Shown: in pieces, positions 11,206 through 62,147 of the stretch
Numbering within the stretch: the first letter of the stretch is position 1
Layout: every line of letters begins with the position of its first letter
Assembly (NCBI GenBank): GCA_963707425.1
Contig: CAVPPN010000005.1
Location: forward strand, 128,832 to 192,831
Length of the DNA: 64,000 nt
Source: an uncultured Actinomycetota bacterium
GTDB lineage: Bacteria > Actinomycetota > Actinomycetes > Propionibacteriales > Nocardioidaceae
Direction: 5' to 3'
Notes under the pieces: model-generated
Told to the model about the DNA's origin: nothing
Databases searched by the model: none
What the model saw: only the letters and a program-made list of their open reading frames with translations
Position numbers and translations under genes: made by a program

Positions 11206-11646
11206 ATGGATTACTCGATGGACACGGCGCCTATCGCCGTTACCCAGGCGGTGACGCTCGAGCTCATCGACGCCACCGGCGCCTCGACCCCCATTGAAGC
11301 CGAGCTCCAGTATGACCCGAGCGACCCGTACGCCGTCACGACCGTGTTCATGACCGCGCACAGCCGCGTGACCTGGACCTTCGGACGCGACCTCCTGAGC
11401 GACGGGCTCTACGAGCCCTCCGGCGACGGCGACGTGCACGTGTGGCCCTGCCTGGACTCCGAGGGGCACGCCGTCGTGATCATCGAGCTCTGCTCGCCCG
11501 ACGGTGAGGCGCTCGTCCAGGCCAAGACCGGCGACCTCACGGCTTTCGTGGACCGGATGAGCCGGGCCGTGCGCCCCGGTGAGGAGTCCGAGCACATGAA
11601 CGTCGACGCGGCGATCGCGGCGATCCTCAGCACCGAGTCCGCCTGA
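11206..11646 (+). CDS. SsgA-family sporulation/cell-division regulator (SsgB-like)
   Basis: 146-aa ORF. YDPSDPYAVTTVF...VTWTFGRDLL..G......GDVHVWP is the SALP signature. Confidence 0.85.
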   Translation: MDYSMDTAPIAVTQAVTLELIDATGASTPIEAELQYDPSDPYAVTTVFMTAHSRVTWTFGRDLLSDGLYEPSGDGDVHVWPCLDSEGHAVVIIELCSPDGEALVQAKTGDLTAFVDRMSRAVRPGEESEHMNVDAAIAAILSTESA

Positions 11647-15823: not shown

Positions 15824-16240
15824 TCAGGCGCCCGTCGCGACGCGGGCCTGGGCCTGCACCGCCCGGCCCACGCGGTCGACGAGCAGCGCCATCTCATACC
15901 CGACCTGGCCGATGTCGGCGGCCTCCTGGGTGAGGACGGCTAGGTTGGAGCCGTCCCCGACACTCATCAGCATCAGGTAGCCGTGCTCCATCTCCACGAC
16001 GGTCTGCAGCACGCCGCCGCCCTCGAACAGGCGGGCCGCACCGACGGCGAGGCTGGCCAGGCCGGACGACACCGCGGCGACCTGCTCGGCACGCTCACCT
16101 GGGATGCTGGCGCTGGCTGCCATCAGCAGGCCGTCGGCCGACACGAGGATGGCGTGGGCCGCATCGGGGGTTTCCTCCACGAAGCGAGTGACCAGCCAGT
16201 CGAGCTGACGAGCGTCGTTCGGAGCGGTGATCTCGGTCAT
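15824..16240 (-). CDS. cvnB: roadblock/LC7 domain protein (CvnB-like)
   Basis: Within ORF 15824..16513. ATG 16240 ([39 protein letters not shown]). Confidence 0.85.
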
Positions 16241-16257
16241 CAGGAACCTGCTTCCGT

Positions 16258-18921
16258 CTATGAAGGGTCGGGTGCGGCGGTTGTGACAGCGGCGCGGCCT
16301 CGCGCGACGCCGGTCGCGTGCGCCGCGAGTCGGGCCCGGATGGCCTCGGGGTCGCGGACCGTAACGGTGGGAGTCGTGGTCACGCCACCCGGCACGAGCC
16401 TGCTGCCGGGGCGCCGTTGGGGAAGCCCGGACTGGCTGACCTCTGGCTCCGCCGGGGTCTCTGCGACCTGGTCGGCCATCTCCCAGCCTGCCTCGATCTC
16501 GGACGTGCGCCACGGCTGCGCGTCGTTGCCCGAGCTCAGCCAGGCCGAGCGCAGCGACCGGAAGATCGGGCTGTCGAAGCCGTCGTCGCCCGGGTCCGTC
16601 CAGTCACCGTCGAGGGCACCGTTCGCCGCCAGGGGAGCCGGCGTGGGCTTCGGCGCCGGCGTGGGCTCGGGTACGGCGACGGCCTCGGCGGCCGGTTCGG
16701 GTGCCGCCGTTGCGGCGGGCTCGGCAGCCGCCTCCGCGAAGGGCGCGGCCGGCGGGGGCGTGGGCTTCGGCGGCTCCGCGGGCGCCGGGGCGGGCCCGTT
16801 GCGCAGCGGCCGGAGCGCCGCCAGCGCGGCGGACGCCGTCGAGGGTGTGACCGGCGTCGGCGCCCCGGAGGCCGGGTCGACAGTGGCTCCCCTGGTGCGG
16901 GTGGGCAGCCCCAGGGCGGCGTCGATCCTGGCCTTGACGTCCAGCTCTGCCGGCTGGTCGTCCTTTGCCTTGACGGGCTCGGGCTTGCGGTCGGGCTTCT
17001 GGGGCTTGCGGTCGGACTTCTCGCGCGCACGGGTCTCCGCCGCCTTCGGTGTGTCCGACTCGGGCGCCGCCTCGCGCGGCTTGGGCGCCGGGGGCGGGGC
17101 CAGCTCGGGGAGGATCGCGACGGGCAGCATCACCGTGGCCGTCGTACCGTTCTCGTCGTTGGCGCGTAGCGACGTGGTGATGCCGTGCCGTTGCGAGAGG
17201 CGGCTGACCACGAAGAGGCCCATCCGGCGAGCGGTGTCGGGGGTGACCTCGCCGCCGGAGCCGAGGCTCTCGTTGATCATCGCCAACTCCTCGGCGAGGA
17301 TGCCTAGCCCGGCGTCCGCGATCTCGATGACCACGCCCTGGGCGGTGGTCGTCGAGCCGACGGTCACCGTCGAGGTGGGCGGCGAGTAGGTCAGGGCGTT
17401 GTCGACCAGCTCACTGAGGAGGTGGACAACGTCGGCCGCAGCGCTGTCGTTGATGCGCATCGGGTTGGCCGACCGGATCCGCACCCTCTGGTAGTCCTGC
17501 ACACCGGACGTCGCCGCCTGCAGGGCGTCGCTCACGGTGAGCCCGTCCACCACGGCGGTCGCCGTCGGCGCGTCGGCGAGGATCAGCAGGCTGTCCGCCG
17601 TACGACGCATGCGGGCGGCGAGGTGGTCGAGCCGGAACAGACTCTCGAGCCGCTTCGGGTCCTCCTCGTCCCGCTCCAGCCGCTCGATCAGGCCGAGCTG
17701 CTGGTTGATCAGCGAGGTGTTGCGGCGCGACAGGGTGACGAACATCTGGCTGACCTGTGACCGCAAGTTGGCCTCGCCGGAGGCCAGCACGACGGCCTGG
17801 CGGTGCATGTCGTCCACGGCCCGCGCCAGCTGGCCGATCTCCTCCTCCGTCGTGACGTCGATCGGCGTGATCTCGCCGGGCTCCTCGCCCGCACGGATGC
17901 GCGCAACCGCCTCGGGCAGCCGCGCGTGTGCTACCGCCAGCGCGCCCTCGCGGACCCGGCGGATCGGGTTGAGCAGCAGGCGCGAGATGAGCAGCGCGAG
18001 CAGGATCGCCGCGACCAGGGCGGTCAGGGTGATCGCCGCGTTGACAGCGGCGTCGGCGCGGGCCTCGGCGGCCGCGGCCTCGAGCTCGTCGTCGATGCCG
18101 TCCTGCAGCGTGCGGATGATGCTGTCGTAGTCGGCATACGCGTTGGCGCCGCCGAGGTCCGTGCCGCCGGTGCGGACCGTGCGGAACCGCTGGGCGTTGG
18201 CGGTGCGCAGCGACGCCACCGCCTTCTCGCTGGTGCCCAGCGCGGTGGCGAGGCGGTCGATCGCGGCGCCCTCGACGCCGAGCTCGGAGAAGAGCTCGAG
18301 CGAGCCGGTCTTACCGGTGCGCTCGGTCGCGACCAGCGCCTGCTGCATGGCCAGCGAGAAACGGCCGGCCAGGGTCTGCGAGAGCAGCTCGAGCCGCGGC
18401 TCAGGGTTGATCTGCTCGTTGACGATCGTGGTGATCAGCTGAGTCACGCCCGACTGCAGCTGGCGCAGCTGCGCCACCCAGGTACCGGGGCTGAGGGTGA
18501 TCGCGTCCTCGGCGCGCAGCGCCTGGCTGAGGTCCAGCACCGCGTCGACCTGGTAGCGCTGGTCGTCGGTGAGGTCGGCGGACTCCTTCGACTCGAGCAG
18601 CTCGCGCCCCGACCTACGGATATCGGCGAGCGCCTCCTCGAGCGCGGCTTTGCTGTCCTCGTCGGTGCCGACGGCGGCGACCATCGCCTGCTCGGCGGCG
18701 GTGAGGTAGTCGACCGCCGGCCGCAGCGCGGTGACCTGCTGGGCGCTGGAGGAGGAGTTCGACGCCTCGACGAGGTCGCCCCGGACCCGCAACCCACCCA
18801 GGGTGCCGGCGAGCAGCAGCGGGATGGCCAGGGCGAGCGCCACCTTGCGGCGCAATGACCATGCGGAGACGGCCAACGCGGACTCTCCGCCGCGATTGGC
18901 AGGGCGCTTGGTGCTCATCAC
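16258..18921 (-). CDS. cvnA: conservon sensor kinase (CvnA-like; NIT-type sensing region, HAMP, HATPase, Pro/Ala-rich tail)
   Basis: 887-aa ORF with an N-terminal TM, HAMP-like [37 protein letters not shown], and a long PA-rich C-terminus. Confidence 0.85.
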
Positions 18922-50562: not shown

Positions 50563-51111
50563 ATGACCGAAGCGATGACGACGTATGACGTGGTCCTGCT
50601 CATCGAGCAGCCACTGTCCACCCAGGACGCGCGACAGGTCCGCGGACTCCACGAGGACTTCGAGGCCCATGTCCGCTACCACGTGCTGCTCCCGGTCGAG
50701 GACGCAGCGGCCAGGGTCGAGTCGGCCATGGGTTCGCTGGCCGCGAGCGAGGTGCTTGCCTCGCCCGCTCTGGTCATGAGCGACATGGACCTCGACGACG
50801 TGCAGCGCGAGCTGCTCGACCGTGCCCGCGAGGACCTGAACGCCTGCCTCGAGCGCCTGACCGAGGTCGGCGCCGACGCGGTCGGTGAGATCGTCAGCGT
50901 CGACCCGATCGACGCCCTGGCCGCGAAGGTCAAGGAGATCGACGGCCGCGAGGCGATCATCCTGACCCGTCCGCACGTGGTCTCGGAGTTCTTCCACCTC
51001 GACTGGACGTCCCGGGCCCGGCGCAAGATCGGCGTTCCGGTGCTGCACCTGCTCGAGCGTGAGACCTTCGACGAGCAGGCCGGAGGCGGCGAGGGCGTCA
51101 GCGGGGTGTAG
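50563..51111 (+). CDS. hypothetical protein
   Basis: 182-aa ORF with coding-like codon bias. No motif recognised. Confidence 0.55.
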   Translation: MTEAMTTYDVVLLIEQPLSTQDARQVRGLHEDFEAHVRYHVLLPVEDAAARVESAMGSLAASEVLASPALVMSDMDLDDVQRELLDRAREDLNACLERLTEVGADAVGEIVSVDPIDALAAKVKEIDGREAIILTRPHVVSEFFHLDWTSRARRKIGVPVLHLLERETFDEQAGGGEGVSGV

Positions 51112-51138
51112 CCGGGACTGGCCCGCTACTGGGCCGCC

Positions 51139-53928
51139 TCACCATCGGACCAGCCCCCAGATGCCGGCACGGGGTTCCTCCTGCGCTCCGATCTCGGCAA
51201 AGATCTCGACGGCCGCCTTGAGGTGTGCCATCGCGTCCTCCGACCGGCCGGAGGCGTGCAAGAGGTCGGCAAGGTTGTTGTGCAGGGCCGCTTCATGATG
51301 TCGGTCCCCCATGGCCGTGCACAGTTCCAGCGCCGCGAACGTCAGGTCGATCGCGCTGCCGAGCTCGTGGCGGGCTCGATGGGCCAGCGCCAGGTTGTTC
51401 AGCGCGGCCACCCGCAGGTCCTGGTCCCCCTCCTGGTCGGCCAGCTCCCGGCTGCGGCCAAGGCTCTCCAAGGCCCCCTCGGTGTCCCCATGGGCAGTGG
51501 CCAGCATCCCCAGCAGGTTGTACGCCTGACACAGGGCCCGGGGGTCACCGGCCTTCTCTGCCAGCGACCGGGCCCGAGCCGCGAGGAGCTGAGCCCTGGA
51601 CCCGTCGCCGAGAGAGTGCGCGGCCAGGCTGAGGTCCGCCGTGATGCCTGAACGGGTCGAGGGGTCCGCGTCGGCGGCCGCCGACAGCGCTGCCTCGAGA
51701 TGTGCCTCTGCCAGGGCGAACTCGCCGCGGCGATGCTGCAGGCGGCCGAGCCGTCGCTCGACCGCAGGCACCTCGCCGGGATCGCAGCCGGCGGCGGCGG
51801 TCTCGAGAGTGAGCATCGCTCCGCTGTAGTCCCCCATCACGGTCTGCAGGTCGCCGATCGCGGTCTGCAGCTGGGTCCGGTCGGGGTGTCCCAGCGCCAG
51901 TGCCGTTCGGAAGTGCTCGAGCGCTTCGGCGTTGGCGAACACCTCCCGGGCCAGCTCGCCGGCGACGCGGAAGGCGCGGGCGGCCTCCTCGTCCCGACCG
52001 GCCAGCTGGAGGTGCCGGGCCACGGAGGCCGGCGGCGAGCCAGGCACCCGGGTAGCCCTTCCGTGCAGCAGCCGTCGACGCGCGAGGCTGGTCTCGTCGT
52101 ACACCACCGCCCGAAGCAGGTCGTGGGCGAAGTCGTAGTCGTACCTGCCCTCGACGACGAGCCCGCGCCCGACGAGCTCCTCGAGCGCCGTCACGGTCTC
52201 CTCGTCGGTGCGCCCACTCACGGCGCGCAGTGCCTCCGCGTCGAAGGACCGGCCGAGTACGGCGGCGGCGGACAGGACCTGCCGACCTGTCTCGCTCACC
52301 GGGTCGAGCCGGCCCCGCAGCAGCGCGCGCACGCCGGTCGGAAGCGGCCACTCGTCCTCCACGCCAGGTGTGCGGAGGTACTCGACGAGCAGCAGCGGGA
52401 CGCCCTCGGTCTTCTCCCAGAGACGCCGGACGGCGGCCGGGTCCCGGTCCCCGGCCCTGGCTGCGTGCACCATCGCCATTACGGCTTCCGGTCCCAACCG
52501 CTCGAGGTGGACCACGGCCCCTTCCCCGGCTCGGACGACCGTGGTGAGGGCACGACGGAGGGGGTGGTCGTGCGGGGTTCGCCAGGTGAGAAGGACCAGC
52601 AACGGTCGGCCGGCCAACCGGCGCAGTCCGTAGGTCAGCAGCCCGAGCGTCGCATCGTCGGCCCACTGCACGTCGTCGATGAACAGCGCTCCGGGGCCGC
52701 TGCCACTCGCGGCCGCGACGAGGGTGTCCCAGACGCCGGACAGGAAGCGGGTCTCGGCGCCAGGCCACTCGAGCGACGGAGCAGGGTCGACCGACCGGCC
52801 GACCCCGAGCTCTGGCACGAGGCGGACCGCCTCCCCCAGGGCGCGGACCTCGACGCCGGCCAGCCAGTCGTCGCCGACGCGGAGCCTGCTGCGCAGGGCC
52901 TCCACGACGGAGGCGTAGGCGAGGCCGGCCTCGTCCTCGTACGCTCGTCCGACCAGGACACGGCCGCTGTGGCCGCGCACCCAGGAGAGCAGCTCCTCCG
53001 CGAGCCGGGTCTTGCCGATTCCCGCCTCTCCCTCGATCAGGACCAAGCGGCCGTCCGCGCCGATCGCGTCGTACACGGCTCGAAGCGCAGCCAGGTCCTC
53101 CGTTCGTCCGACGAACGGTGATGCCATCGGCTCCGCCTCCGGGGCGGTCGCCGTGACGGCAGCCTGTCTCGGCGCCGCGTATGTTCCTCGGCTGATCCCC
53201 TCGTAGAGCTCCGTCGTCTCCGACAGCGGCGGCACGCCGAGCTCGCGGGAGAGGGTTCTGACGCACTCGCGGTACTGCGTGAGTGCAGCGGCCCGGTCCC
53301 CGGTCGCGGCGTACAGCCGGATCAACGCCTGATGGGCCGGCTCGTGCAGCGGGTCGATCGCGAGCCATCGCCGTGCGGACAGCAGGGCGGCGGTCAGGTC
53401 CCCCACCGCCTCGCGCTCCTGTGTCATGGCTGCGAGCGCGGCGGTGAGCTGGCGACGCAGACCGTCGCCCTCGAGCTGTACCCAGTCCTCGAAGCCGGGC
53501 GCCTGTCGTACGGCGAAACCCTCGAGGAAGTCACCCCGGAACAGGTCGACGGCCCGCTGCAGGTCCCCGCGCCTGCAGAGCTCGCGGAAACGGTCGACGT
53601 CCACGTCGATACCAGGGCCCTTGACCAGGCGCACATGGTCGCGGGTCGCCTCGACCAGCTCCGCCCCGATCGCGTCACGCAGCGCTGACAAGGTGCGCCG
53701 CAGGGCGCCGCGGGCATGTTCCGGGTCGTTGTCCGGCCAGAGCAGGTCCGCCAACGCGTCTCGGGTGCGCGATCTGTCGGTGACGGTCAGGAGCGCGAGC
53801 AGGGCCACGGCCTTGCGGGTGTCGAATGCGACGAGTTCCCCGTCCCGCATCACACGCGGGGGGCCCAGAAGGCTGACCTCGATCACCTGGGCCATCCGTT
53901 CCCGACCGGCCATGACACCGGTCGCCAA
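51139..53928 (-). CDS. SARP/AfsR-type regulator (winged-helix + BTAD + P-loop NTPase + TPR)
   Basis: 929-aa ORF. LLGPPRVMRDGELVAFDTRKAVALLALL, BTAD region, GEAGIGKTRL, and C-terminal TPR-like repeats. The start may instead be ATG 53895. Confidence 0.85.
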   Translation of the reverse strand: MATGVMAGRERMAQVIEVSLLGPPRVMRDGELVAFDTRKAVALLALLTVTDRSRTRDALADLLWPDNDPEHARGALRRTLSALRDAIGAELVEATRDHVRLVKGPGIDVDVDRFRELCRRGDLQRAVDLFRGDFLEGFAVRQAPGFEDWVQLEGDGLRRQLTAALAAMTQEREAVGDLTAALLSARRWLAIDPLHEPAHQALIRLYAATGDRAAALTQYRECVRTLSRELGVPPLSETTELYEGISRGTYAAPRQAAVTATAPEAEPMASPFVGRTEDLAALRAVYDAIGADGRLVLIEGEAGIGKTRLAEELLSWVRGHSGRVLVGRAYEDEAGLAYASVVEALRSRLRVGDDWLAGVEVRALGEAVRLVPELGVGRSVDPAPSLEWPGAETRFLSGVWDTLVAAASGSGPGALFIDDVQWADDATLGLLTYGLRRLAGRPLLVLLTWRTPHDHPLRRALTTVVRAGEGAVVHLERLGPEAVMAMVHAARAGDRDPAAVRRLWEKTEGVPLLLVEYLRTPGVEDEWPLPTGVRALLRGRLDPVSETGRQVLSAAAVLGRSFDAEALRAVSGRTDEETVTALEELVGRGLVVEGRYDYDFAHDLLRAVVYDETSLARRRLLHGRATRVPGSPPASVARHLQLAGRDEEAARAFRVAGELAREVFANAEALEHFRTALALGHPDRTQLQTAIGDLQTVMGDYSGAMLTLETAAAGCDPGEVPAVERRLGRLQHRRGEFALAEAHLEAALSAAADADPSTRSGITADLSLAAHSLGDGSRAQLLAARARSLAEKAGDPRALCQAYNLLGMLATAHGDTEGALESLGRSRELADQEGDQDLRVAALNNLALAHRARHELGSAIDLTFAALELCTAMGDRHHEAALHNNLADLLHASGRSEDAMAHLKAAVEIFAEIGAQEEPRAGIWGLVRW

Positions 53929-54008
53929 TAGGGCGTCGTAACGATTCCCGAACGGCGGATCTCGAACCTACTGTAGAACGAGTCCGGTGGAGGGAGGTCG
54001 CATCTCCG

Positions 54009-55187
54009 ATGTGCCCTCGGCGCAGTCGCAGCGCTTCTGTCCTCGCCTGGTCCCTTTGGGGCCTGTGGGTGGCGTTGTCGGCTTTGATCGTCTGGCTGAC
54101 CCTGCCTGAGCCGACTGACGAAGCGTTCGAGGTCGCACTGGTGGGTTTCGCCACCGTCGGTGCCCTCGTGGCCGCACGACAGCCGCGAAACGCCTTGGGT
54201 TGGATGCTGCTCGCGTTCGCCCTTGTGCTCGCACTCCAAACGGCGGCTGACGTCTACGCGAGCACGGAGTCCTACCCCGGGTACCTGGCTGCCGCCTGGT
54301 TTGCGACGTGGGTCTGGTACGTCTGGGTGCTGCTCATCCTGGTCTTCGTCCCGCTGGTGTTCCCTGACGGGCACCTGCTCTCTCGGCGTTGGCGACCCGT
54401 CGCGTGGCTCGGGGGCGCCGCGATGGTGGCAAGCATCGTCGGGGCCGCGTTCAAGCCAGGCGAGCTGGACGTGTCCGCGGTGATAACGAACCCGCTCGCT
54501 GTGAGCGGAGGCGCCGGCGACGTCTTCGCAACCCTCGAGAGCACGGGGACTGTCCTCCTCGCCCTTGCTGTCCTCCTGACGGCTGGGTCGCTCATTGTCC
54601 GCTTCCGGCGCTCGCGTGGCGTGGAACGTCAGCAGCTGAAGTGGTTCGCGTTCGCGGGACTGCTGGTGTTGGGGGGCTGGACACTGGCGGCGGTCGATGC
54701 ACTGGTGGAAAGCGCATGGTCGGAGCCTGTCGGATCTGTGGGCTGGACGATGTTCATGTTGGCGAGCATCCTCGGGATTCCGGGGGCGACCGGGATCGCG
54801 ATCTTCCGATACCGGCTCTATGACATCGACCTGGTCATCAACCGCACCCTGGTCTACGGCGTGCTGACGGTGGCACTGGTAACGACGTACGTCGGCTCGG
54901 TGCTCGTACTGCGGCTGGTGCTGAGCCCGATCACAGGAGACTCCGCCCTCGCGGTCGCGGGATCGACGCTGGCGGTCGCGGCGCTCTTCCGTCCCGCCAG
55001 GAGACGCATCCAGGATGTGGTCGACCGGCGGTTCTACCGGCGACGCTACGACGCCGCCAGGATCCTGGACGAGTTCGCGAACCGGCTGCGCCACGAGCTG
55101 GACCTCGACGCGGTCGGCGCCGACCTGTGCGCGGCCACCGTAGCGACCCTCCAGCCCACACACGTCTCCCTCTGGGTCCGACCATGA
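54009..55187 (+). CDS. sensor-like polytopic membrane protein, paralog 1 of 4
   Basis: 392 aa, ~10 hydrophobic helices. Blocks RQPRNALGW, FPDGHLLSRRWRPVAWL, RFRRSRGVERQQLKW, LYDIDLVINRTLVYG, RFYRRRYDA. Ends SLWVRP-stop with a CCATGA junction. Confidence 0.8.
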   Translation: MCPRRSRSASVLAWSLWGLWVALSALIVWLTLPEPTDEAFEVALVGFATVGALVAARQPRNALGWMLLAFALVLALQTAADVYASTESYPGYLAAAWFATWVWYVWVLLILVFVPLVFPDGHLLSRRWRPVAWLGGAAMVASIVGAAFKPGELDVSAVITNPLAVSGGAGDVFATLESTGTVLLALAVLLTAGSLIVRFRRSRGVERQQLKWFAFAGLLVLGGWTLAAVDALVESAWSEPVGSVGWTMFMLASILGIPGATGIAIFRYRLYDIDLVINRTLVYGVLTVALVTTYVGSVLVLRLVLSPITGDSALAVAGSTLAVAALFRPARRRIQDVVDRRFYRRRYDAARILDEFANRLRHELDLDAVGADLCAATVATLQPTHVSLWVRP

Positions 55188-56449
55188 GTGCCACCTCGGA
55201 CCGCACGCCGCCGACCTCGGGCTCGGGCATGGTCCACCGCCCGGTCGCCGACGTGGAGCTCGACACGGGAACGGTTGCGACCCGTCGCAGCGCCTCGGTC
55301 CTGGCATGGTCCCTGTGGGGGCTATGGGTGGCGTTGTCAGCGCTGACTCTGTGGCTGGCCCTGCATCGGGGCGCGCCAAGCGCAGGTTTCGGCCTGCTCG
55401 TCGTCGGGGTGGTCACGGTCGGGGCCATCGTGGGCTCACGTCGCCCCCGCAACGCGGTGGGATGGCTGCTGCTCGCACTCGCGCTGACCTTCACTCTCGG
55501 GGCCGTCGGCGACGCCTACGTGTCGACACGGCCGCACACCGGCTACCTCGCTGTGGCGTGGGTGGTCGGGTGGCTGTGGTACGTGTGGCTGTTCCTCATC
55601 GGGATCTTCGTCCCGCTCGTGTTCCCCGACGGGCACCTGCTCTCGCGACGCTGGCGACCCGTCCTCTGGCTCGGGGTCGCGGCGCTGGTGGCGTGCGTCG
55701 TGGGGGCCGCGTTCAAGTCGGGCGAAATGGAGGTAACAGGGTCGGTCCAGAACCCCCTGGCCGCACCCGGCGTCGCAGGCGAGGCGTTCAGTGCCCTCGA
55801 GACCCTGGGTGGGGTTCTCCTCGTGGTGGCGGTTCTACTCACGACCACGTCGCTCGTTCTTCGCTTCCGGCGCTCCCACGGCGTCGAGCGCCAGCAGCTG
55901 AAGTGGTTCGCGTTCGCGGGCATGCTCGTAGTGGTGGGCCTGACCCTGGCCGCGACCGATGACCTGCTGCCGGGAGCTTGGACCGTTCCTGTCGGAGGGG
56001 TGGGCTGGAGCATGTTCCTCTTCGGGTGCGTTGTCGGAATTCCCGTAGCGACGGGCATCGCGATCTTCCGGCACCACCTCTACGACATCGACGTGGTCAT
56101 CAACCGCACCCTGGTCTATGGGTCGCTCACCGTGATGCTCGGCGCTACGTACGTCGGCTCCGTGCTCCTGCTCGAGCTGGTCCTGAACCCCCTGACGCAC
56201 AACTCCGACCTGGCGATCGCGGCCTCGACGTTGGCGGTGGCTGCCCTCTTCCGCCCCGCGAGAACACGCATCCAGGCCGGGGTGGACCGGCGGTTCTACC
56301 GACGGCGGTACGACGCTTCCCGGACCCTGGACGACTTCGCGAACCGGCTGCGGCACGAGCTGGACCTCGATGCCGTGGGCACTGACCTCTGCGCGGCCGC
56401 CGAGGAGACCGTGCAGCCGTCCCACGTCTCCCTCTGGATCCGGCCATGA
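55184..56449 (+). CDS. sensor-like polytopic membrane protein, paralog 2 of 4
   Basis: Within ORF 55127..56449. ATG 55184 overlaps the paralog 1 stop (ATGA). Same blocks; ends SLWIRP-stop with a CCATGA junction. Confidence 0.8.
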   Translation: MSATSDRTPPTSGSGMVHRPVADVELDTGTVATRRSASVLAWSLWGLWVALSALTLWLALHRGAPSAGFGLLVVGVVTVGAIVGSRRPRNAVGWLLLALALTFTLGAVGDAYVSTRPHTGYLAVAWVVGWLWYVWLFLIGIFVPLVFPDGHLLSRRWRPVLWLGVAALVACVVGAAFKSGEMEVTGSVQNPLAAPGVAGEAFSALETLGGVLLVVAVLLTTTSLVLRFRRSHGVERQQLKWFAFAGMLVVVGLTLAATDDLLPGAWTVPVGGVGWSMFLFGCVVGIPVATGIAIFRHHLYDIDVVINRTLVYGSLTVMLGATYVGSVLLLELVLNPLTHNSDLAIAASTLAVAALFRPARTRIQAGVDRRFYRRRYDASRTLDDFANRLRHELDLDAVGTDLCAAAEETVQPSHVSLWIRP

Positions 56450-57687
56450 CGACCCCGTCAGACCGCGCTCTGCGGCGGACGGCCTGGGTGGTGGCCTCGT
56501 TCGTGCCCGCCATGACCGTCGTCGGAGCGGCGTTGACGTTCGCGGAGCCGCCCGTCGGCAACTCGTGGGGAGACTTTGTGGGCGAGCTGGCCTTCCTCGT
56601 CGTCGTAGCGACTTTCCCGCTCGTCGGTCTACTCATCTTGCGACGTCAACCACGCAACACGGTCGGTTGGCTGCTTCAGGGCGTCGGTTTCCTCTGGGGG
56701 CTTTCCATGGTGGCCGACATCTACGCCACCTATGGGCTCCTGGTGGACCCGGGCTCGCTGCCGGGTGCCGATGTCGTAGAGGGAGCCGCTCAAGGAAGCT
56801 GGGCGCCCGGGATCGGGCTGATGGGAACCTTCCTGATCCTCCTCTACCCCGACGGGCACCTGCCGACGCCGCGTTGGCGACCGGTCGCCTGGCTCTCCGC
56901 GGTGACCATCGTCGTCGTCACCACCACCATCGCGCTCCTGCCCGGGCGGATGGACGAGAGCGCCGTGCCTGACACGAGGAACCCGATCGGTCTGGAGGGA
57001 GCCGCGCCGGTTCTCGACGTCGTGCTGGCCGTCTTCCTGCCGCTCCTGCCGCTGTGCATCCTTGCATGCGCGGTCTCGCTGGTACGGCGCTTCCGTCGCT
57101 CACACGGCGTCGAGCGGTTGCAGCTGAAGTGGCTCGCGACAGCAGGAGCCGTCGTTGCCGTCCTGTACCTGCTCACCATGGCTGGGTCCTTCCTCACCGC
57201 AACCACCGCCTTCGCTGACGGGTCACCTCTCTGGGTCACGACGCTCCAGACCGTGTCGATCCTGTCGTTCGCGCTCCTGCCCGTGGCAATCGGCATCGCC
57301 GTTCTCCGGCATGGTCTCTACGGCATCGACGTCGTCATCAACCGCACCCTGGTGTACGGGTCGCTGACCGTGACGCTCGCCGGGGTGTACGTCGGATCGG
57401 TGCTCCTCCTGCAGCTGGTCCTGAGCCCTGTGACCAGCCAGTCCGACCTTGCTGTCGCAGGCTCGACCCTGGTGGTCGCGGCACTGTTCCGCCCCGCCCG
57501 GACACGGATCCAGAGCGCAGTGGACCAGCGGTTCTACAGGAGCCGGTACGACGCTGCTCGAACACTCGAGGCCTTCACGTCCCGCCTCCGGCACGAGCTC
57601 GACCTCGACGCGGTGGGCAACGACCTGCGCACCACCGTCGACGAGACCGTGCAGCCGGCCCATCTCTCCCTGTGGCTACGACCATGA
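56446..57687 (+). CDS. sensor-like polytopic membrane protein, paralog 3 of 4
   Basis: 413 aa. Same blocks (RQPRNTVGW, YPDGHLPTPRWRPVAWL, RFRRSHGVERLQLKW). Ends SLWLRP-stop with a CCATGA junction. Confidence 0.8.
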   Translation: MTTPSDRALRRTAWVVASFVPAMTVVGAALTFAEPPVGNSWGDFVGELAFLVVVATFPLVGLLILRRQPRNTVGWLLQGVGFLWGLSMVADIYATYGLLVDPGSLPGADVVEGAAQGSWAPGIGLMGTFLILLYPDGHLPTPRWRPVAWLSAVTIVVVTTTIALLPGRMDESAVPDTRNPIGLEGAAPVLDVVLAVFLPLLPLCILACAVSLVRRFRRSHGVERLQLKWLATAGAVVAVLYLLTMAGSFLTATTAFADGSPLWVTTLQTVSILSFALLPVAIGIAVLRHGLYGIDVVINRTLVYGSLTVTLAGVYVGSVLLLQLVLSPVTSQSDLAVAGSTLVVAALFRPARTRIQSAVDQRFYRSRYDAARTLEAFTSRLRHELDLDAVGNDLRTTVDETVQPAHLSLWLRP

Positions 57688-58928
57688 CCCGGGTATCCGA
57701 CACGGCGCTTCGACGGCGGGCCTGGGCTCTGCTGTCGCTCTTCGCCGGGGTGCTCATCAGCCGGGGCACGATCAGCCTGGTGGAGCCCCGGGTGCGAGAC
57801 GGGCACGGTGCCGTCGCCGCCCTCGGTGAGGTCGGGATCGTTCTCCTCGTCGCCAGCTTCCCGGTCACCGCGCTGGTCATACTGCGCAGCAAACCGCGCA
57901 ACCGGATCGGCTGGTTGCTGATGGCGATCGGAGCCGTCTGGACGCTTGGCGCTCTGGCCGACGGCTACGCCCGGTACGCGCTGCTCGTGAGCCCGGGATC
58001 GCTGCCTCGACCCGATGTCGCGGCTGTGCTGAACGCAGTCAGCTGGGCTCCCGGTCTGGGCCTGATGGGCACGTTCCTGATCCTGCTGTTCCCGGATGGT
58101 CGTCTCCCCTCACCTCGGTGGCGTCCCGTTGCCTGGCTGTCCGCCGCCACAGTCGCGGCGCTCACGGTGACTCTGCTGCTGACGCCCGGTGAGCTCGACG
58201 TCGGCCCGATGCCGTCGCTGCGCAACCCCTTCGGTGTGGAGTCCGCCCGTTCGGTCCTCACCGTGCTGCTGGGCTTCCTGCTGCCTTTGCTGCCGATCTG
58301 CATCGGGGCGTGTGCCCTGGCCCTCGTCCTGCGTTTCCGACGCTCACGCGGGGTCGAGCGGCTGCAGCTCAAGTGGCTGACCACGGCGGCTGCGTTGGTG
58401 GCCCTCCTCTTCCTGTTCTCGTTCTCGGTCTCCCTGCTCTCGGGATCTCTCTCCGGTGACACACAGCCCGAGTGGATGGACGTGCTGGACGCGGCGTCGT
58501 TCCTGTCGTTCCTCCTCATCCCGGTGGCGATCGGCACCGCCGTCCTGAGACACAAGCTCTACGACATCGACCTGGTGATCAACCGTGCCCTGGTGTACGG
58601 CTCACTCACCGTGACACTGGCCATCACGTACGTCGGGTCGGTCCTCGTCCTGCAACGGGCTGTCAGCCCGGTCACCAGCGAGTCCGACCTGGCTGTCGCC
58701 GGGTCGACGCTGGTTGTTGCCGCGCTCTTCCGCCCGGCCCGGTCGCGCATCCAGGCAGCCGTGGACCGACGGTTCTACCGGAGCCGCTACGACGCAGCCA
58801 AGACGTTGGACGCATTCGCGGTCCGGCTGCGCCACGAGCTGGACCTCGACTCCGTGGGAGCCGACCTCCGCGCCACAGTCGACGAGACCGTGCAACCGGC
58901 CCACCTCTCCCTCTGGCTACGACCGTGA
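57684..58928 (+). CDS. sensor-like polytopic membrane protein, paralog 4 of 4
   Basis: Within ORF 57672..58928. ATG 57684 overlaps the paralog 3 stop. Ends SLWLRP-stop, here with junction CCGTGA. Confidence 0.8.
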   Translation: MTRVSDTALRRRAWALLSLFAGVLISRGTISLVEPRVRDGHGAVAALGEVGIVLLVASFPVTALVILRSKPRNRIGWLLMAIGAVWTLGALADGYARYALLVSPGSLPRPDVAAVLNAVSWAPGLGLMGTFLILLFPDGRLPSPRWRPVAWLSAATVAALTVTLLLTPGELDVGPMPSLRNPFGVESARSVLTVLLGFLLPLLPICIGACALALVLRFRRSRGVERLQLKWLTTAAALVALLFLFSFSVSLLSGSLSGDTQPEWMDVLDAASFLSFLLIPVAIGTAVLRHKLYDIDLVINRALVYGSLTVTLAITYVGSVLVLQRAVSPVTSESDLAVAGSTLVVAALFRPARSRIQAAVDRRFYRSRYDAAKTLDAFAVRLRHELDLDSVGADLRATVDETVQPAHLSLWLRP

Positions 58929-58999
58929 TGGGCGACAACCCCGCCGGCCGACGAGCTGTAACGGTTGGTGGACGGTCAGGCATTAGAAAGGTCCTCACC

Positions 59000-60640
59000 A
59001 TGACTGCAATCACAGCCTCGTTCCGGCGCCGCCTCCTCGGCCGCTCGGCTACGCCGGGAGCGGCGAACGGGCCCGTGGAGCCCGTGGCCGAGCCCTCAGG
59101 TGAGGCGGTGCCCGTCGACATCACACCGAACGACCCGCTCCTGGCCTACCTGCAGAGTGCCAACGGAGTCGTGGACATCGACACGCTGAAGCTCGACTCG
59201 CCCGGTCTCGCCGCCATGAAGGCCGCAGGCGTGAAGCTTGCCGTCCCCCTGGTCAGCCAGGGCGAGCTGATCGGCGTACTGAGCCTCGGCCCGCGACGCT
59301 CCGCACAGGACTACTCGACCGACGACCGGAAGCTGCTGGACGCCCTGGCTGCACAGGCCGCGCCGGCAGTCCGGGTCGGGCAGCTCGTTCGTCAGCAGGA
59401 GGCAGAGGCCCGGACCAGGGAACGGTTCGAGCAGGAGCTCGAGGTCGCACGGCTGATCCAGCAGAACTTCCTGCCCAAGGAGCTGCCTGATCTCCCCGGC
59501 TGGGAGATCGCCGCCCTGTACCGGCCGGCGCGCGAGGTCGGTGGGGACTTCTACGACGTGATCCCCCTGCCAGACGGGCGGATCGGGTTCGTGGTGGGAG
59601 ACGTCACCGACAAGGGCGTACCGGCCGCCCTGGTCATGGCGGCGACCCGGAGTGTGCTCCGGGCATCGGCGCAGCGGCTGGTCGACCCGCGGGAGGTCCT
59701 CGAGCGCGTGAACGAGCATCTGTGTCCGGACATGCCCGCCAAGATGTTCGTCACCTGTCTGTACGGCGTACTGGAGCCGGACACGGGGCGCTTCCGCTTC
59801 GCCAACGCCGGGCACGACCTGCCGTACGTGAAGACCTCGGGCGGGTCCGTCGAGCTCCGGGCCCGAGGGATGCCGCTCGGTCTGATGCCCGGGATGGCGT
59901 ACGAGGAGAGCGAGACCATCCTGGCTCCCGGCGACTCGCTGCTCCTGCATTCGGACGGGATCGTCGAAGCGCACGACCCCGACGGTCAGATGTTCGGCTT
60001 CCCACGCCTGAAGGACGCGGTTGCGAGGTATCCCGGCGGCGGTGCGCTGATCGAGCTCGTGCTCAAGGACCTGCGCGCGCACACCGGGCCCGAGGCGGAG
60101 CAGGAGGACGACATCACGATGCTCACCCTGGCCCGGGCCGCGTCGTCGGCCCCTGGAGGAGACGGCTCGACGCTCTCTGGCCAGGTCGTGGAGTTCGACG
60201 TCCCCAGCATGGAGGGCAACGAGCGCCTGGCGCTGGAGCGAGTGAGCACGATCGTCGCGCCGCTCGGCCTGGTCGAGGCCCGGCGCAAGCGTCTGGAGAC
60301 GGCCGTCGCGGAGGCCACGATGAACGCGATGGAGCACGGGAACCGCTACAGCGCCGACAAGCCGGTCACCGTGCGGGTGATGACCGGGTCGGACGAGGTA
60401 CGGGTCCAGATCGTCGACCACGGCGGGGGCCCCTCCGGCGACGAGAACGAGGTGCCCGACATCGAGGCGAAGCTTGCGGGCCTCCAGCGCCCGCGTGGGT
60501 GGGGGTTGTTCCTCATCAAGGAGATGGTCGACGAGGCGCACGAGTCCAGCGACGGGGAAGAGCACATCCTCGAGCTGGTGATGCGCCTCGGCGACGACTC
60601 GACCGACCGACTTGCCGGAGGCAGCGATGGCAACCAGTGA
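59000..60640 (+). CDS. partial-GAF-like N-terminus + PP2C (SpoIIE) phosphatase + RsbW/SpoIIAB-type HATPase kinase fusion
   Basis: Within ORF 58472..60640. ATG 59000 preferred on codon bias; GTG 58925 is the alternative. VPLVSQGELIGVLSLGPR; GGDFYDVIP...VVGDVTDKG...HSDGIVE; N-box EATMNAMEHGN, DHGGG, GWGLFLI. Confidence 0.85.
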   Translation: MTAITASFRRRLLGRSATPGAANGPVEPVAEPSGEAVPVDITPNDPLLAYLQSANGVVDIDTLKLDSPGLAAMKAAGVKLAVPLVSQGELIGVLSLGPRRSAQDYSTDDRKLLDALAAQAAPAVRVGQLVRQQEAEARTRERFEQELEVARLIQQNFLPKELPDLPGWEIAALYRPAREVGGDFYDVIPLPDGRIGFVVGDVTDKGVPAALVMAATRSVLRASAQRLVDPREVLERVNEHLCPDMPAKMFVTCLYGVLEPDTGRFRFANAGHDLPYVKTSGGSVELRARGMPLGLMPGMAYEESETILAPGDSLLLHSDGIVEAHDPDGQMFGFPRLKDAVARYPGGGALIELVLKDLRAHTGPEAEQEDDITMLTLARAASSAPGGDGSTLSGQVVEFDVPSMEGNERLALERVSTIVAPLGLVEARRKRLETAVAEATMNAMEHGNRYSADKPVTVRVMTGSDEVRVQIVDHGGGPSGDENEVPDIEAKLAGLQRPRGWGLFLIKEMVDEAHESSDGEEHILELVMRLGDDSTDRLAGGSDGNQ

Positions 60641-60989
60641 CCTGCCCACCGAGGTACGACGGCGCGAGCACGTGGCGGTGATCGACCTGATGGGTGACGT
60701 GAACGCAGGAGCCGAGGAGTCGCTGAACGCGGCATGGGACGAGGCCACTCTCGGAGGTCCCGACGCCGTGGTCCTCAACTTCGAGGGTGCGGGCTACATC
60801 AACTCCACCGGCATCGCGTTGATCGTCGGGCTGCTCGCCAGGGCCCGAGCGCACACGATCCCGATCCGGGCCTACGGGCTGAGCCCTCATTACCGGGAGA
60901 TCTTCGAGATCACCCGCCTGGCGGACTTCCTGGCGATCCGGCCCGACGAGGACAGCGCCGTCCGCGGCGCGGACAGGAGCAACGCATGA
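60627..60989 (+). CDS. STAS domain protein (anti-sigma-factor antagonist-like) 1
   Basis: Within ORF 60612..60989. GGAGG RBS before ATG 60627. VVLNFEGAGYINSTGIALIVGLL carries a candidate phospho-Ser/Thr. Confidence 0.8.
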   Translation: MATSDLPTEVRRREHVAVIDLMGDVNAGAEESLNAAWDEATLGGPDAVVLNFEGAGYINSTGIALIVGLLARARAHTIPIRAYGLSPHYREIFEITRLADFLAIRPDEDSAVRGADRSNA

Positions 60990-61336
60990 CCGAGGCAACA
61001 GCGACCTTCGACGTACGCCGGCAGGGAAATGCCAGCGTCGTGGACATCCGGGGGGACGTGACAGCGGGTTCGGAGGACGTGCTCATGAGCGCGTACAACG
61101 CGGCGGGCGACGTCGGGGCGATCGTGCTCAACTTCTCCGACCTCTCGTACATGAACAGTGGCGGGATCGGGCTGCTGGTGACCTTGCTGGTGCGCGCGAA
61201 CCGGCGCTCCCAGCGGTTGCTGGCCTACGGCCTCAGCGACCACTACCGGCAGATATTCGAGCTGACCCGCCTCGACGAGGCCGTCAGCATCCACGACAGC
61301 GAGCGGTCCGCGCTCAACGCGGCCGGCGCCGGGTAG
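60986..61336 (+). CDS. STAS domain protein (anti-sigma-factor antagonist-like) 2
   Basis: Within ORF 60734..61336. ATG 60986 (ATGA overlap). IVLNFSDLSYMNSGGIGLLVTLL. Confidence 0.8.
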   Translation: MTEATATFDVRRQGNASVVDIRGDVTAGSEDVLMSAYNAAGDVGAIVLNFSDLSYMNSGGIGLLVTLLVRANRRSQRLLAYGLSDHYRQIFELTRLDEAVSIHDSERSALNAAGAG

Positions 61337-61364
61337 ACGGCGTCCGACGGGAAGGGAGGACACC

Positions 61365-62147
61365 ATGGGCGACCAGGACGAGAGGACACACGTGCAGGCT
61401 GTCGAGACGCAGTCGGCCGCTCGTGACACCGCCCACTGGGCGAAGTCGGTGTCGAGACTGACCGTCTCCAACGTGCCCGAGGGGGCCGTCAACCTCAACG
61501 TGGCGGGGAAGCGCCTCGCCGGGCCGATCCAGGGCTTCGGCAAGATGTGGCAGAAGACCTACCAGGTGCGACTCCCCGGCGAACTGGTGTCGGCGACCGA
61601 TCTGGTCACCGTGTGGAAGGAGCGGTTCCCCGACTTCTGGCCGGAGGGCAACAGGTTCTACGCGCCGCTGACCGGCATCGAGCCTGGGGAGGTCGCGCTG
61701 ATCAACTCGAAGCTTCCTGGTGGCGTGAAGCTGTCTACCGGCGTCATGGTGCTCTACGCCGACGACGAGTCGTTCACGCTGATGACGCCGCAAGGCCATG
61801 TGTTCGCCGGCTGGATCACGTTCAGCGCAGCGGAGCGCGACGGCGAGACGGTGGCCCAGGCGCAGGTGCTCATGCGCGCATCCGACCCGATCTTCGAGCT
61901 CGGCATGGCGCTGGGCGGGCACCGCCAGGAGGACCAGTTCTGGGCAGAGACCCTGCGTGGCGTCGCGGCCTACTTCGGCGAGTCACCGGAGGTCGACACG
62001 CACGTCGTGTGCGTGGACAAGAGGCGTCAGTGGTCCCGGTGGAGCAACGTCTGGCACTCCGCGGCCATCCGCTCGACCGGCTACATGCTCGCGGCCCCTG
62101 TACGGGGCGTGCGTTCACTGGCCCACCGCCGGCCGAAGGTCGTCTGA
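61365..62147 (+). CDS. hypothetical protein, last gene of the sensor/PP2C/STAS cluster
   Basis: 260-aa ORF with GGGAAGGGAGGA upstream of the ATG. No motif I can name with confidence. Confidence 0.65.
   Translation: MGDQDERTHVQAVETQSAARDTAHWAKSVSRLTVSNVPEGAVNLNVAGKRLAGPIQGFGKMWQKTYQVRLPGELVSATDLVTVWKERFPDFWPEGNRFYAPLTGIEPGEVALINSKLPGGVKLSTGVMVLYADDESFTLMTPQGHVFAGWITFSAAERDGETVAQAQVLMRASDPIFELGMALGGHRQEDQFWAETLRGVAAYFGESPEVDTHVVCVDKRRQWSRWSNVWHSAAIRSTGYMLAAPVRGVRSLAHRRPKVV

Follow-up and report, generated by a model that had tools for sequence, protein, structure and literature searches.

The sensor array and its effector gene

The locus considered here lies in a 64,000-nucleotide stretch of contig CAVPPN010000005.1 from an uncultured Nocardioidaceae bacterium; this stretch is referred to as the window, and positions are counted from its first letter. 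It contains four consecutive paralogous genes, g1 to g4, each encoding a membrane sensor module, and a fifth gene, g5, encoding an effector with phosphatase and kinase domains. Two STAS genes follow g5, and a gene for a SARP-type regulator lies upstream of g1 in the opposite orientation. In this study we were concerned with how the four sensors and the one effector are related, and with the GAF domain to which both sides appear to contribute. The features of the array and of g5 are as follows.

54009–55187, forward strand: g1, sensor module, 392 aa, clade A (open reading frame call and alignment)
55101–55184, forward strand: tail of g1, fragment with GAF helix 1 and strand 1 (DLDAVGADLCAATVATLQPTHVSLWVRP)
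55184–56449, forward strand: g2, sensor module, 421 aa, clade A; its ATG overlaps the g1 stop (ATGA)
56363–56446, forward strand: tail of g2, GAF fragment
56446–57687, forward strand: g3, sensor module, 413 aa, clade B; ATGA overlap with g2
57601–57684, forward strand: tail of g3, GAF fragment
57684–58928, forward strand: g4, sensor module, 414 aa, clade B; ATGA overlap with g3
58842–58925, forward strand: tail of g4, GAF fragment
59000–60640, forward strand: g5, effector, 546 aa, with a GAF domain lacking its N-terminal part, PP2C/SpoIIE and HATPase_c_2
59000–59116 (aa 1–39), forward strand: N-terminal peptide of g5 (MTAITASFRRRLLGR) and linker
59117–59371 (aa 40–124), forward strand: GAF of g5 without helix 1 and strand 1 (partial Pfam match)
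between GAF and phosphatase, forward strand: long linker helix of g5
about 59570–60133, forward strand: PP2C/SpoIIE phosphatase of g5 (Pfam SpoIIE, 6.6e-52)
about 60224–60574, forward strand: RsbW-like HATPase_c_2 kinase of g5 (Pfam, 6e-18)

The four same-strand reading frames were found as called in a first-pass annotation made from the letters of this DNA, and the seven motif blocks listed there as common to the paralogs are all present in the alignment. Identity is 67% between g1 and g2, 62% between g3 and g4, and 46–48% between the two pairs. All 4 paralogs end in ...SLW(V/I/L)RP followed by TGA, as had been observed, and the junctions g1/g2, g2/g3 and g3/g4 are each the hexamer CCATGA, in which stop and start overlap as ATGA. 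A strong ribosome-binding site (GGAGGGAGG) stands upstream of g1. The sequence CCGTGA, previously taken for a fourth junction of this kind, is indeed present after g4 but is not a gene junction, as the ATG of g5 at 59000 is 71 nt 3' of the g4 stop. This start is assigned because the resulting 546 aa match two database proteins of 100% identity (P0391, P0392) and because the N-terminus is conserved. Translational coupling of g4 to the enzyme through CCGTGA, as once supposed, is unsupported in the window, although in some other genomes the last sensor gene and g5 do overlap by ATGA.

The AlphaFold2 model of g4 (mean predicted local distance difference test score, pLDDT, 84.5; 77 homologs in the input alignment) has 10 transmembrane helices and then a tail of about 65 aa, which agrees with the earlier estimate of about ten hydrophobic helices and slightly shortens the tail of roughly 75 aa given with it. 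The tenth helix runs on as a long helix (335–385) and is followed by a short one (388–402). With g4 modelled by itself, its final 12 residues have pLDDT <50 and are disordered. From the distribution of basic residues and the g4 model, our reading is that both termini of the modules would be cytoplasmic, together with the conserved basic motifs KPRN, FPDGxLPxxRWRP, RFRRSxGVERxQLKW and LYDIDxxINR.

When g1 to g4 were scanned against Pfam and NCBIfam no family reached its cut-off, in keeping with the earlier view that they carry no recognisable catalytic or output domain. The Pfam scan gave no GAF match in them and neither HisKA/HisKA_3 nor HATPase_c, so they do not qualify as sensor histidine kinases. 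HisKA_7TM (PF16927) also gave no match in g1 to g4; across 77 family members its sub-threshold matches (10 of 77, best E 8.8e-4) were the only recurrent signalling-related signal. The PrsK model (TIGR02916, cut-off 300 bits) scored 14.4 bits with g4 (aa 212–386 against profile 144–318) and 25.6 bits with g5 (profile 370–475), colinear matches that are both far below the cut-off. A sequence search of the PDB returned noise only (ribosomal protein L4 at E 0.2), and a Foldseek search of the PDB with the g4 model gave nothing at E ≤0.001, the best TM-score being 0.37, to G-protein-coupled receptors.

The output-less sensors do stand upstream of one signalling enzyme, as was noted at first, and its domains are readily classified. 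The SpoIIE domain of g5 (PF07228) is complete, with 176.7 bits against a cut-off of 25 and coverage of profile positions 1–190 of 192, and its sequence shows the acidic motifs GDFYD, GDVTDKG and HSDG. The HATPase_c_2 domain (PF13581; 65.5 bits against a cut-off of 27.4) is near-complete and has a readable N-box, EATMNAMEHGN, which places it with the RsbW/SpoIIAB-type kinases. The GAF matches of g5 are partial: GAF_3 is covered from profile position 34 to 127, and GAF and GAF_2 from 82/84 to about 132–135.

The divided GAF domain, fused relatives and distribution

The beginning of the GAF domain that is missing from g5 was located by means of natural fusion proteins. These surfaced only with a virtual g4+g5 query of 794 aa, since the homolog search apparently favours matches of query-like length; an earlier search had returned only stand-alone proteins of about 415 aa, and a 150-aa query from the g5 N-terminus only short fragments. 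One of the proteins recovered, P0393, is a single chain of 919 aa from an Actinomycetota metagenome-assembled genome (MAG), annotated as 'SpoIIE family protein phosphatase'. Its residues 55–404 align with residues 52–413 of g4 (42% identity, 4e-94), ending exactly at WLR, and its residues 416–916 align with residues 40–530 of g5 (58% identity), the intervening linker being 11 aa. Pfam GAF covers residues 378–499 of P0393 as profile 1–132, and GAF_3 covers 378–500 as profile 1–127. As this match runs through the point at which the window proteins are split, one GAF domain must span that point. In each paralog the final ~28 residues (DLDxVGxDL...QPxHxSLWxRP) represent GAF profile positions ~1–30, that is, helix 1 and strand 1. 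All four paralogs end at the same residue because each stops after these two elements, the remainder of the domain starting g5. In the window no single chain covers a GAF profile (PF01590, PF13492 or PF13185) in full; the domain is present only as two complementary pieces.

The surroundings of P0393 repeat the gene order of the window, namely SARP, fused gene, STAS, STAS and an uncharacterised 267-aa gene. The membrane part of P0393 is nearest to clade B, to which g3 and g4 belong and which supplies the last gene of every array in the paralog tree. The g4 type is thus both the sensor type that adjoins the effector gene and the type that is fused in P0393. Other fused proteins with a GAF domain across the split point are P0419, which has an extra PAS domain, P0460, P0508 and P0476. 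The linker after strand 1 varies in the fused proteins from about 11 to 50 aa, and since this loop tolerates insertions it is a plausible place for a gene fission. P0460, P0476 and P0508 have a different N-terminal membrane part with a cupredoxin-like insert, joined to the same last helices, tail and GAF.

The membrane module is also found in histidine kinases. P0129 and P0133 have the same module and linker helix and a complete small GAF, colinear with the tail plus g5, and in both the module is fused to GAF-HisKA_3-HATPase_c. The suggestion made at first, that the membrane blocks resemble the N-terminal regions of some actinobacterial histidine kinases, is therefore borne out, and the resemblance extends to GAF-SpoIIE phosphatases. 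Two membrane modules stand in tandem in P0129 (1071 aa) and P0133 (884 aa), the first without a GAF fragment and the second joined to GAF-HisKA_3, which hints that modules associate side by side in the membrane.

Judged from these alignments, the input half of a sensor phosphatase/kinase has been detached and multiplied as g1 to g4, and it is within the GAF domain that the two halves are divided. Orthologs of g5 begin with a conserved basic peptide, MTA(I/L)TGSFRRR(L/F)LGR (MTAITGSFRRRLLGR), with a variable linker behind it. Since the fused P0393 has no counterpart of this peptide, the peptide seems to go with the split form; it may be a docking or membrane-binding element. The components are all of known kinds, and the architecture was not found described: the literature searched held no account of a split GAF domain with multiplied sensors, and the initial remark that the arrangement could not be assigned to a described system holds to that extent.

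The sensor family is large. More than 7,000 clusters (90% identity) were found at E ≤1e-5 among 8,000 candidates scored, and a profile search of 50%-identity representatives gave 32,746 proteins at E ≤0.001, of which 9,097 reach E ≤1e-30. Among the best 150 profile matches almost all are stand-alone proteins of about 400 aa. The nearest named relatives of the window paralogs are proteins from Nocardioidaceae MAGs labelled 'hypothetical protein'. A large unannotated sensor family without a fitting Pfam model is thereby defined. The split within the GAF gives a concrete reason why the 'hypothetical' membrane proteins of such an array share one stopping point, which is otherwise a puzzling feature of these genomes.

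For a survey of loci, one genome per species was scanned with the g5 N-terminus, which gave 199 relatives and 80 loci. These span the Nocardioidaceae, cultured strains of Kribbella and Nocardioides, Aeromicrobium, Ornithinibacter, Geodermatophilaceae and the Thermoleophilia (Solirubrobacterales, Thermoleophilaceae). The gene order is constant: a divergent SARP gene, 1–9 sensor paralogs, sometimes an SRPBCC gene, GAF-SpoIIE-HATPase_c_2, STAS, STAS and an uncharacterised gene of ~250 aa. On long contigs the arrays looked up comprised 3, 8, 8, 9 and at least 7 sensor genes in tandem, overlapping by (A/G)TGA. The g5-anchored loci, the look-up loci and the window, with duplicates removed and upstream DNA available, amount to 77 independent loci. 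In all 77 the sensor-family profile finds an array directly upstream of g5 on the same strand, and in none of them is a module fused to g5. Complete arrays have 1–8 copies, 4 being commonest, and one further locus has 9. Homolog searches together with neighbourhood mining had been proposed with the first-pass annotation as a means of counting arrays and finding fused relatives; the loci have 1–9 copies each, and the homolog search gave P0393 and others as fused forms. The 285 full modules of these loci end 0–56 aa after SLWLR, all but one within 28.

The distance from the last sensor gene to g5 falls into classes of -4 (ATGA overlap), 7–16 nt, 28–213 nt and ~350–670 nt, with 1.1–1.8 kb in four loci. 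An SRPBCC (Polyketide_cyc2) gene stands between array and g5 in roughly one fifth to one quarter of loci, for example at 11309–11758 in L002 and 11528–11980 in L089, and is absent from the window. Its homolog occupies the ~470–560-nt gaps of many loci, and gaps of ~590–630 nt gave no SRPBCC match. The STAS pair and the uncharacterised gene are present in nearly all loci that extend downstream of g5, and where the DNA continues past the array, most loci show a SARP homolog upstream in the opposite orientation.

Paralogs are 36–68% identical, and other genomes have orthologs of them at corresponding places in the array. Because they group with these orthologs, they are an old birth-and-death family rather than recent copies. 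The pairing of g1 with g2 and g3 with g4 noted at first is correct, but the two rounds of duplication proposed to account for it are too simple for old clades with orthologs and a copy number of 1–9; g1/g2 alone look like a lineage-specific duplication. The arrangement is ancient, occurs widely among soil Actinomycetota and has gone unannotated. Its occurrence in cultured Kribbella and Nocardioides opens it to genetics and biochemistry.

A proposed route from sensors to effector

It is considered probable that g1 to g4 are the detached, multiplied input modules of a split sensor phosphatase/kinase and that the tail of each shares one GAF fold with g5. Each module would be a membrane sensor of ten transmembrane helices with its N- and C-termini in the cytoplasm, the last transmembrane helix continuing as a long cytoplasmic helix. 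Its chain ends with GAF helix 1 and strand 1 (DLDxxGxDL...QPxHxSLWLR), and g5 begins with the rest of the GAF. With moderate support from the AlphaFold models described below, the sensor tail may dock non-covalently into g5, completing the GAF fold and bringing g5 to the membrane. The completion of a beta-sheet fold by a strand from another chain is familiar from donor-strand complementation in chaperone-usher pili, which serves as an analogy for this step; the fold and the biology there are different, and in the window such complementation is only predicted.

The state of the sensor would then act through the GAF and the linker helix, so that g5 would switch between dephosphorylating and phosphorylating the STAS proteins. 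This GAF-to-enzyme step is drawn by analogy from sensor-linked PPM phosphatases, for which it has been proposed that a dimeric helical linker transmits control from various N-terminal sensor domains, GAF among them (PMC12143880). The two STAS proteins are likely to be the substrates of both g5 activities. The paralogs might compete for a g5 dimer, or pair on it, and several membrane signals would thereby be integrated by one enzyme. A further suggestion is made tentatively, and we would sooner doubt than affirm it: that the GAF is kept in two pieces, up to nine sensors each donating a helix and a strand to one bifunctional enzyme, and that the sensor or pair completing the fold sets its activity (competitive fold complementation).

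Several results bear on how the tail and g5 relate. Across the 285 modules the mean top-residue frequency is 0.22–0.49 in transmembrane helices 1–8 and outer loops 1–4, and 0.73–0.87 in cytoplasmic loops 2–4, transmembrane helices 9–10, the linker helix and the terminal strand; over the 11 residues of that strand, MQPAHVSLWLR, it is 0.84. A conserved output side with a diversified membrane and outer side is the pattern expected if the inputs had diverged while the output side stayed matched to one shared partner. In an AlphaFold2 chimera of the g4 tail and the g5 N-terminus, LSLWL of the tail is called a strand, the 10-residue block around it averaging pLDDT 65. The g5 part of the chimera (pLDDT 80–96) has only two long strands, two short helices and the long C-terminal helix. 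In Foldseek the chimera matches GAF domains almost exclusively (cyanobacteriochromes, DosT, PDE6, a Bacillus halodurans kinase), mostly over ~80–100 of the target's ~150 residues. In virtual fusions with g5 the native tails of g1, g2 and g4 extended the PF01590 match to profile positions 1–4 with a gain of 3–5 bits, and a shuffled tail joined to g5 did not extend it. Covariation between tail and g5 would not be expected to give a signal, because both sides are almost invariant.

A number of points weigh against a GAF fold shared in this way. The chimera has a mean pLDDT of 68, with only about 45–65 in the tail, and the DSSP call is the one basis on which the tail strand is taken to pair with the g5 sheet. 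The gain in score from the native tails is small, and the g3 tail extends the PF01590 match only to position 53. It may be that g5 folds and functions with a reduced GAF of its own. The association survey was anchored on g5, and in the reverse direction, from a stand-alone module to its partner, it covered close relatives only. Finally, no sigma-70 family match was found among the 10 proteins scanned from 50563 to 62147, or among the called genes of related loci, so the locus offers no sigma or anti-sigma target.

It could also be that the sensors act with g5 by some means other than completion of the GAF, with contact through cytoplasmic loops or the g5 N-terminal peptide and with the tail as a leftover of gene fission or an element of sensor oligomerisation. 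This appears unlikely, though several observations speak for it. Cytoplasmic loops 2–4 are as strongly conserved as the tail, g5 has gained the peptide that P0393 lacks, the tail is of low confidence in the chimera, and the tandem modules of P0129 and P0133 suggest contacts between modules. A leftover tail, however, would not hold a frequency of 0.84 over its 11 terminal residues in 285 modules that are otherwise ~40–50% identical. Further, the tail strand is hydrophobic and unpaired in the model of g4 alone, and g5 without it is left with two long strands.

The remaining explanations were rejected. Transporters and pseudogenes among the relatives had been named in the first-pass annotation as grounds for abandoning a sensor array, and neither identity was encountered. 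That the upstream copies are decaying, functionless duplicates covering only the 5' part of a gene that was formerly fused would suit their being tandem copies of the N-terminal half of a gene fused in P0393, but is scarcely credible when frames are intact in dozens of genomes from two Actinomycetota classes, orthologous clades hold their array positions, motifs are strongly conserved and start/stop overlaps are retained. There is very little likelihood that g1 to g4 are transporters or other membrane proteins unrelated to signalling: the weak SBF (PF01758) match of g4 that suggests it (E 0.014, 15.5 bits) is below the 24.3-bit cut-off and is seen in only 2 of 77 members, Foldseek shows no transporter fold, and GAF kinases and GAF phosphatases have this same module at their N-terminus. 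Recoding at the last junction, by frameshift or stop read-through, into a covalent sensor-g5 fusion is equally improbable; the window g5 frame has no stop from 58472 on, so that such a fusion could arise by a -1 shift at CCGTGA, and in some genomes the last sensor gene overlaps g5 by ATGA or is separated from it by 12 nt in frame, but the frame offset between the two varies (0, 1 or 2), stops intervene in 52 of 77 loci, another gene stands in between in about a third of loci, and paralogs 1–3 could not be joined to g5 by this means.

Taking the split sensor phosphatase/kinase as the favoured reading, its closest likeness is to the single-chain sensor-GAF-SpoIIE(-HATPase_c_2) phosphatases P0393, P0460, P0476 and P0419, which have the same membrane module, tail, GAF type and PP2C and, in some, the RsbW-like kinase; P0393 shares its SARP, STAS and uncharacterised neighbours with the window as well. 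The fused phosphatases are one polypeptide with one input, whereas the chain in the window is cut within the GAF, has 1–9 diverged inputs in its relatives' loci and its own, and has a g5 with a new N-terminal peptide. The GAF-HisKA_3 kinases P0129 and P0133 share the membrane module, the linker helix (LFxPxRxRLQ...) and GAF helix 1 and strand 1, and differ in having the GAF complete in cis, a histidine kinase output and, in some, two tandem membrane modules.

The separation of a sensing membrane component from the catalytic component is known from LiaF-LiaS, BceAB-BceS and DctA-DcuS. In each of these, unlike the window, both partners have complete domains, and there is neither a fold made of two chains nor an array of alternative inputs. 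The Bacillus subtilis stressosome pathway (RsbRA-RD/YtvA, RsbS, RsbT, RsbU, RsbV, RsbW) is similar in that paralogous sensors lead to one PP2C acting on a STAS protein, with an RsbW-type kinase opposing it (PMC12143880). The window sensors differ in having ten transmembrane helices and no STAS or globin domains, RsbS and RsbT are absent, and there is no sigma factor at the locus. With no STAS domain in g1 to g4 and no stand-alone RsbT-like gene at the locus, the locus is not a stressosome of the RsbR/RsbS/RsbT kind. Moreover, kinase and phosphatase are in one chain in the window, and the coupling proposed is a shared GAF fold, not a released kinase.

Mycobacterium tuberculosis Rv1364c, Streptomyces coelicolor OsaC and Vibrio SypE, the last with SypA, resemble g5. 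Each combines a sensor domain with PP2C and RsbW-like kinase domains in a single chain and has STAS partners (PMC12143880). The sensor domain, of the PAS, GAF or REC kind, is whole in these proteins and stands in cis, and they have no membrane module and no multiplied input genes. The arrangement in the window points to a testable route by which many sensors could share one enzyme, each supplying the missing piece of a regulatory domain. If fold complementation is true, it would offer a natural template for engineering modular split sensors, and in its competitive form it would be a coupling principle not described for bacterial signalling.

Flanking genes and the cis motif

The other features of the module in the window are these.

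51139–53928, reverse strand: SARP/AfsR-type regulator (BTAD, AAA_16 ATPase and TPR), divergent from the array; start uncertain, TTG 53928 or ATG 53913
53938–53954, forward strand: cis motif copy 1 (GTAACGATTCCCGAACG), 54 nt ahead of the g1 ATG; candidate array promoter element or SARP box
58958–58974, forward strand: cis motif copy 2 (GTAACGGTTGGTGGACG), 25 nt ahead of the g5 ATG; candidate SARP box or internal promoter for g5
60627–60989, forward strand: STAS protein 1, 120 aa (Pfam STAS 2.9e-11), overlapping the g5 end by 14 nt; motif YINSTG
60986–61336, forward strand: STAS protein 2, 116 aa (Pfam STAS 9.1e-11), with an ATGA overlap with STAS protein 1; motif YMNSGG
61365–62147, forward strand: 260-aa protein without a Pfam match, the last constant member of the module

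Both small proteins belong to the STAS family (PF01740) and have a serine in the motif (I/M)NS(T/G)G. This serine of YINSTG and YMNSGG we take to be the phosphosite, as in SpoIIAA and RsbV. A homolog of the 260-aa gene follows the STAS pair in nearly all loci that reach far enough downstream, the fused-gene locus included. The regulator is assigned to the SARP class by its Pfam matches to BTAD (1.4e-21), AAA_16 (4.3e-20) and TPR_12 (6.4e-10), with a faint one to Trans_reg_C (E 0.09). Adjoining it at 50563–51111 is a 182-aa open reading frame with no Pfam match, which probably lies outside the module because it is matched in one related locus only, at a different position.

The cis motif, GTAACG-N6-RVACG, is 17 nt long and contains AACG direct repeats 11 nt apart. 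Exactly 2 copies occur in the window, against 0.09 expected. Of the 88 fetched loci 86 contain it, and 47 of 60 have it upstream of the array. Its distance to the g5 start is 21–25 nt in 58 of 80 loci and no more than 130 nt in 70 of 80; the position of the motif before g5 is kept even where it falls inside the 3' end of the last sensor gene. Tandem repeats are a known feature of SARP binding sites. The 11-nt spacing of the repeats, together with the linked SARP gene, suggests that the motif copies are candidate SARP boxes. If so, the copy before g5 would give it a promoter of its own, possibly with a very short leader, and the SARP regulator would probably drive the array and g5 through this common motif. 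A scan for sigma-70 promoters found nothing, and a terminator scan gave no excess over chance.

Some loci show the motif in other positions. In L002 it stands before both the SRPBCC gene and g5, and it also occurs upstream of P0460, in an unrelated neighbourhood (L087, L088). In L022 an extra member of the sensor family (16055–17231) lies ~6 kb downstream of g5, outside the array, in an assembly rich in frameshifts. In L001, L002, L004 and L089 the uncharacterised gene is followed by a gene for an FAD-dependent amine-oxidase-like protein, and L001 also has one for a cyclopropane-fatty-acid-synthase-like methyltransferase nearby; the window has different genes here. These neighbours are a weak hint of a lipid-related context.

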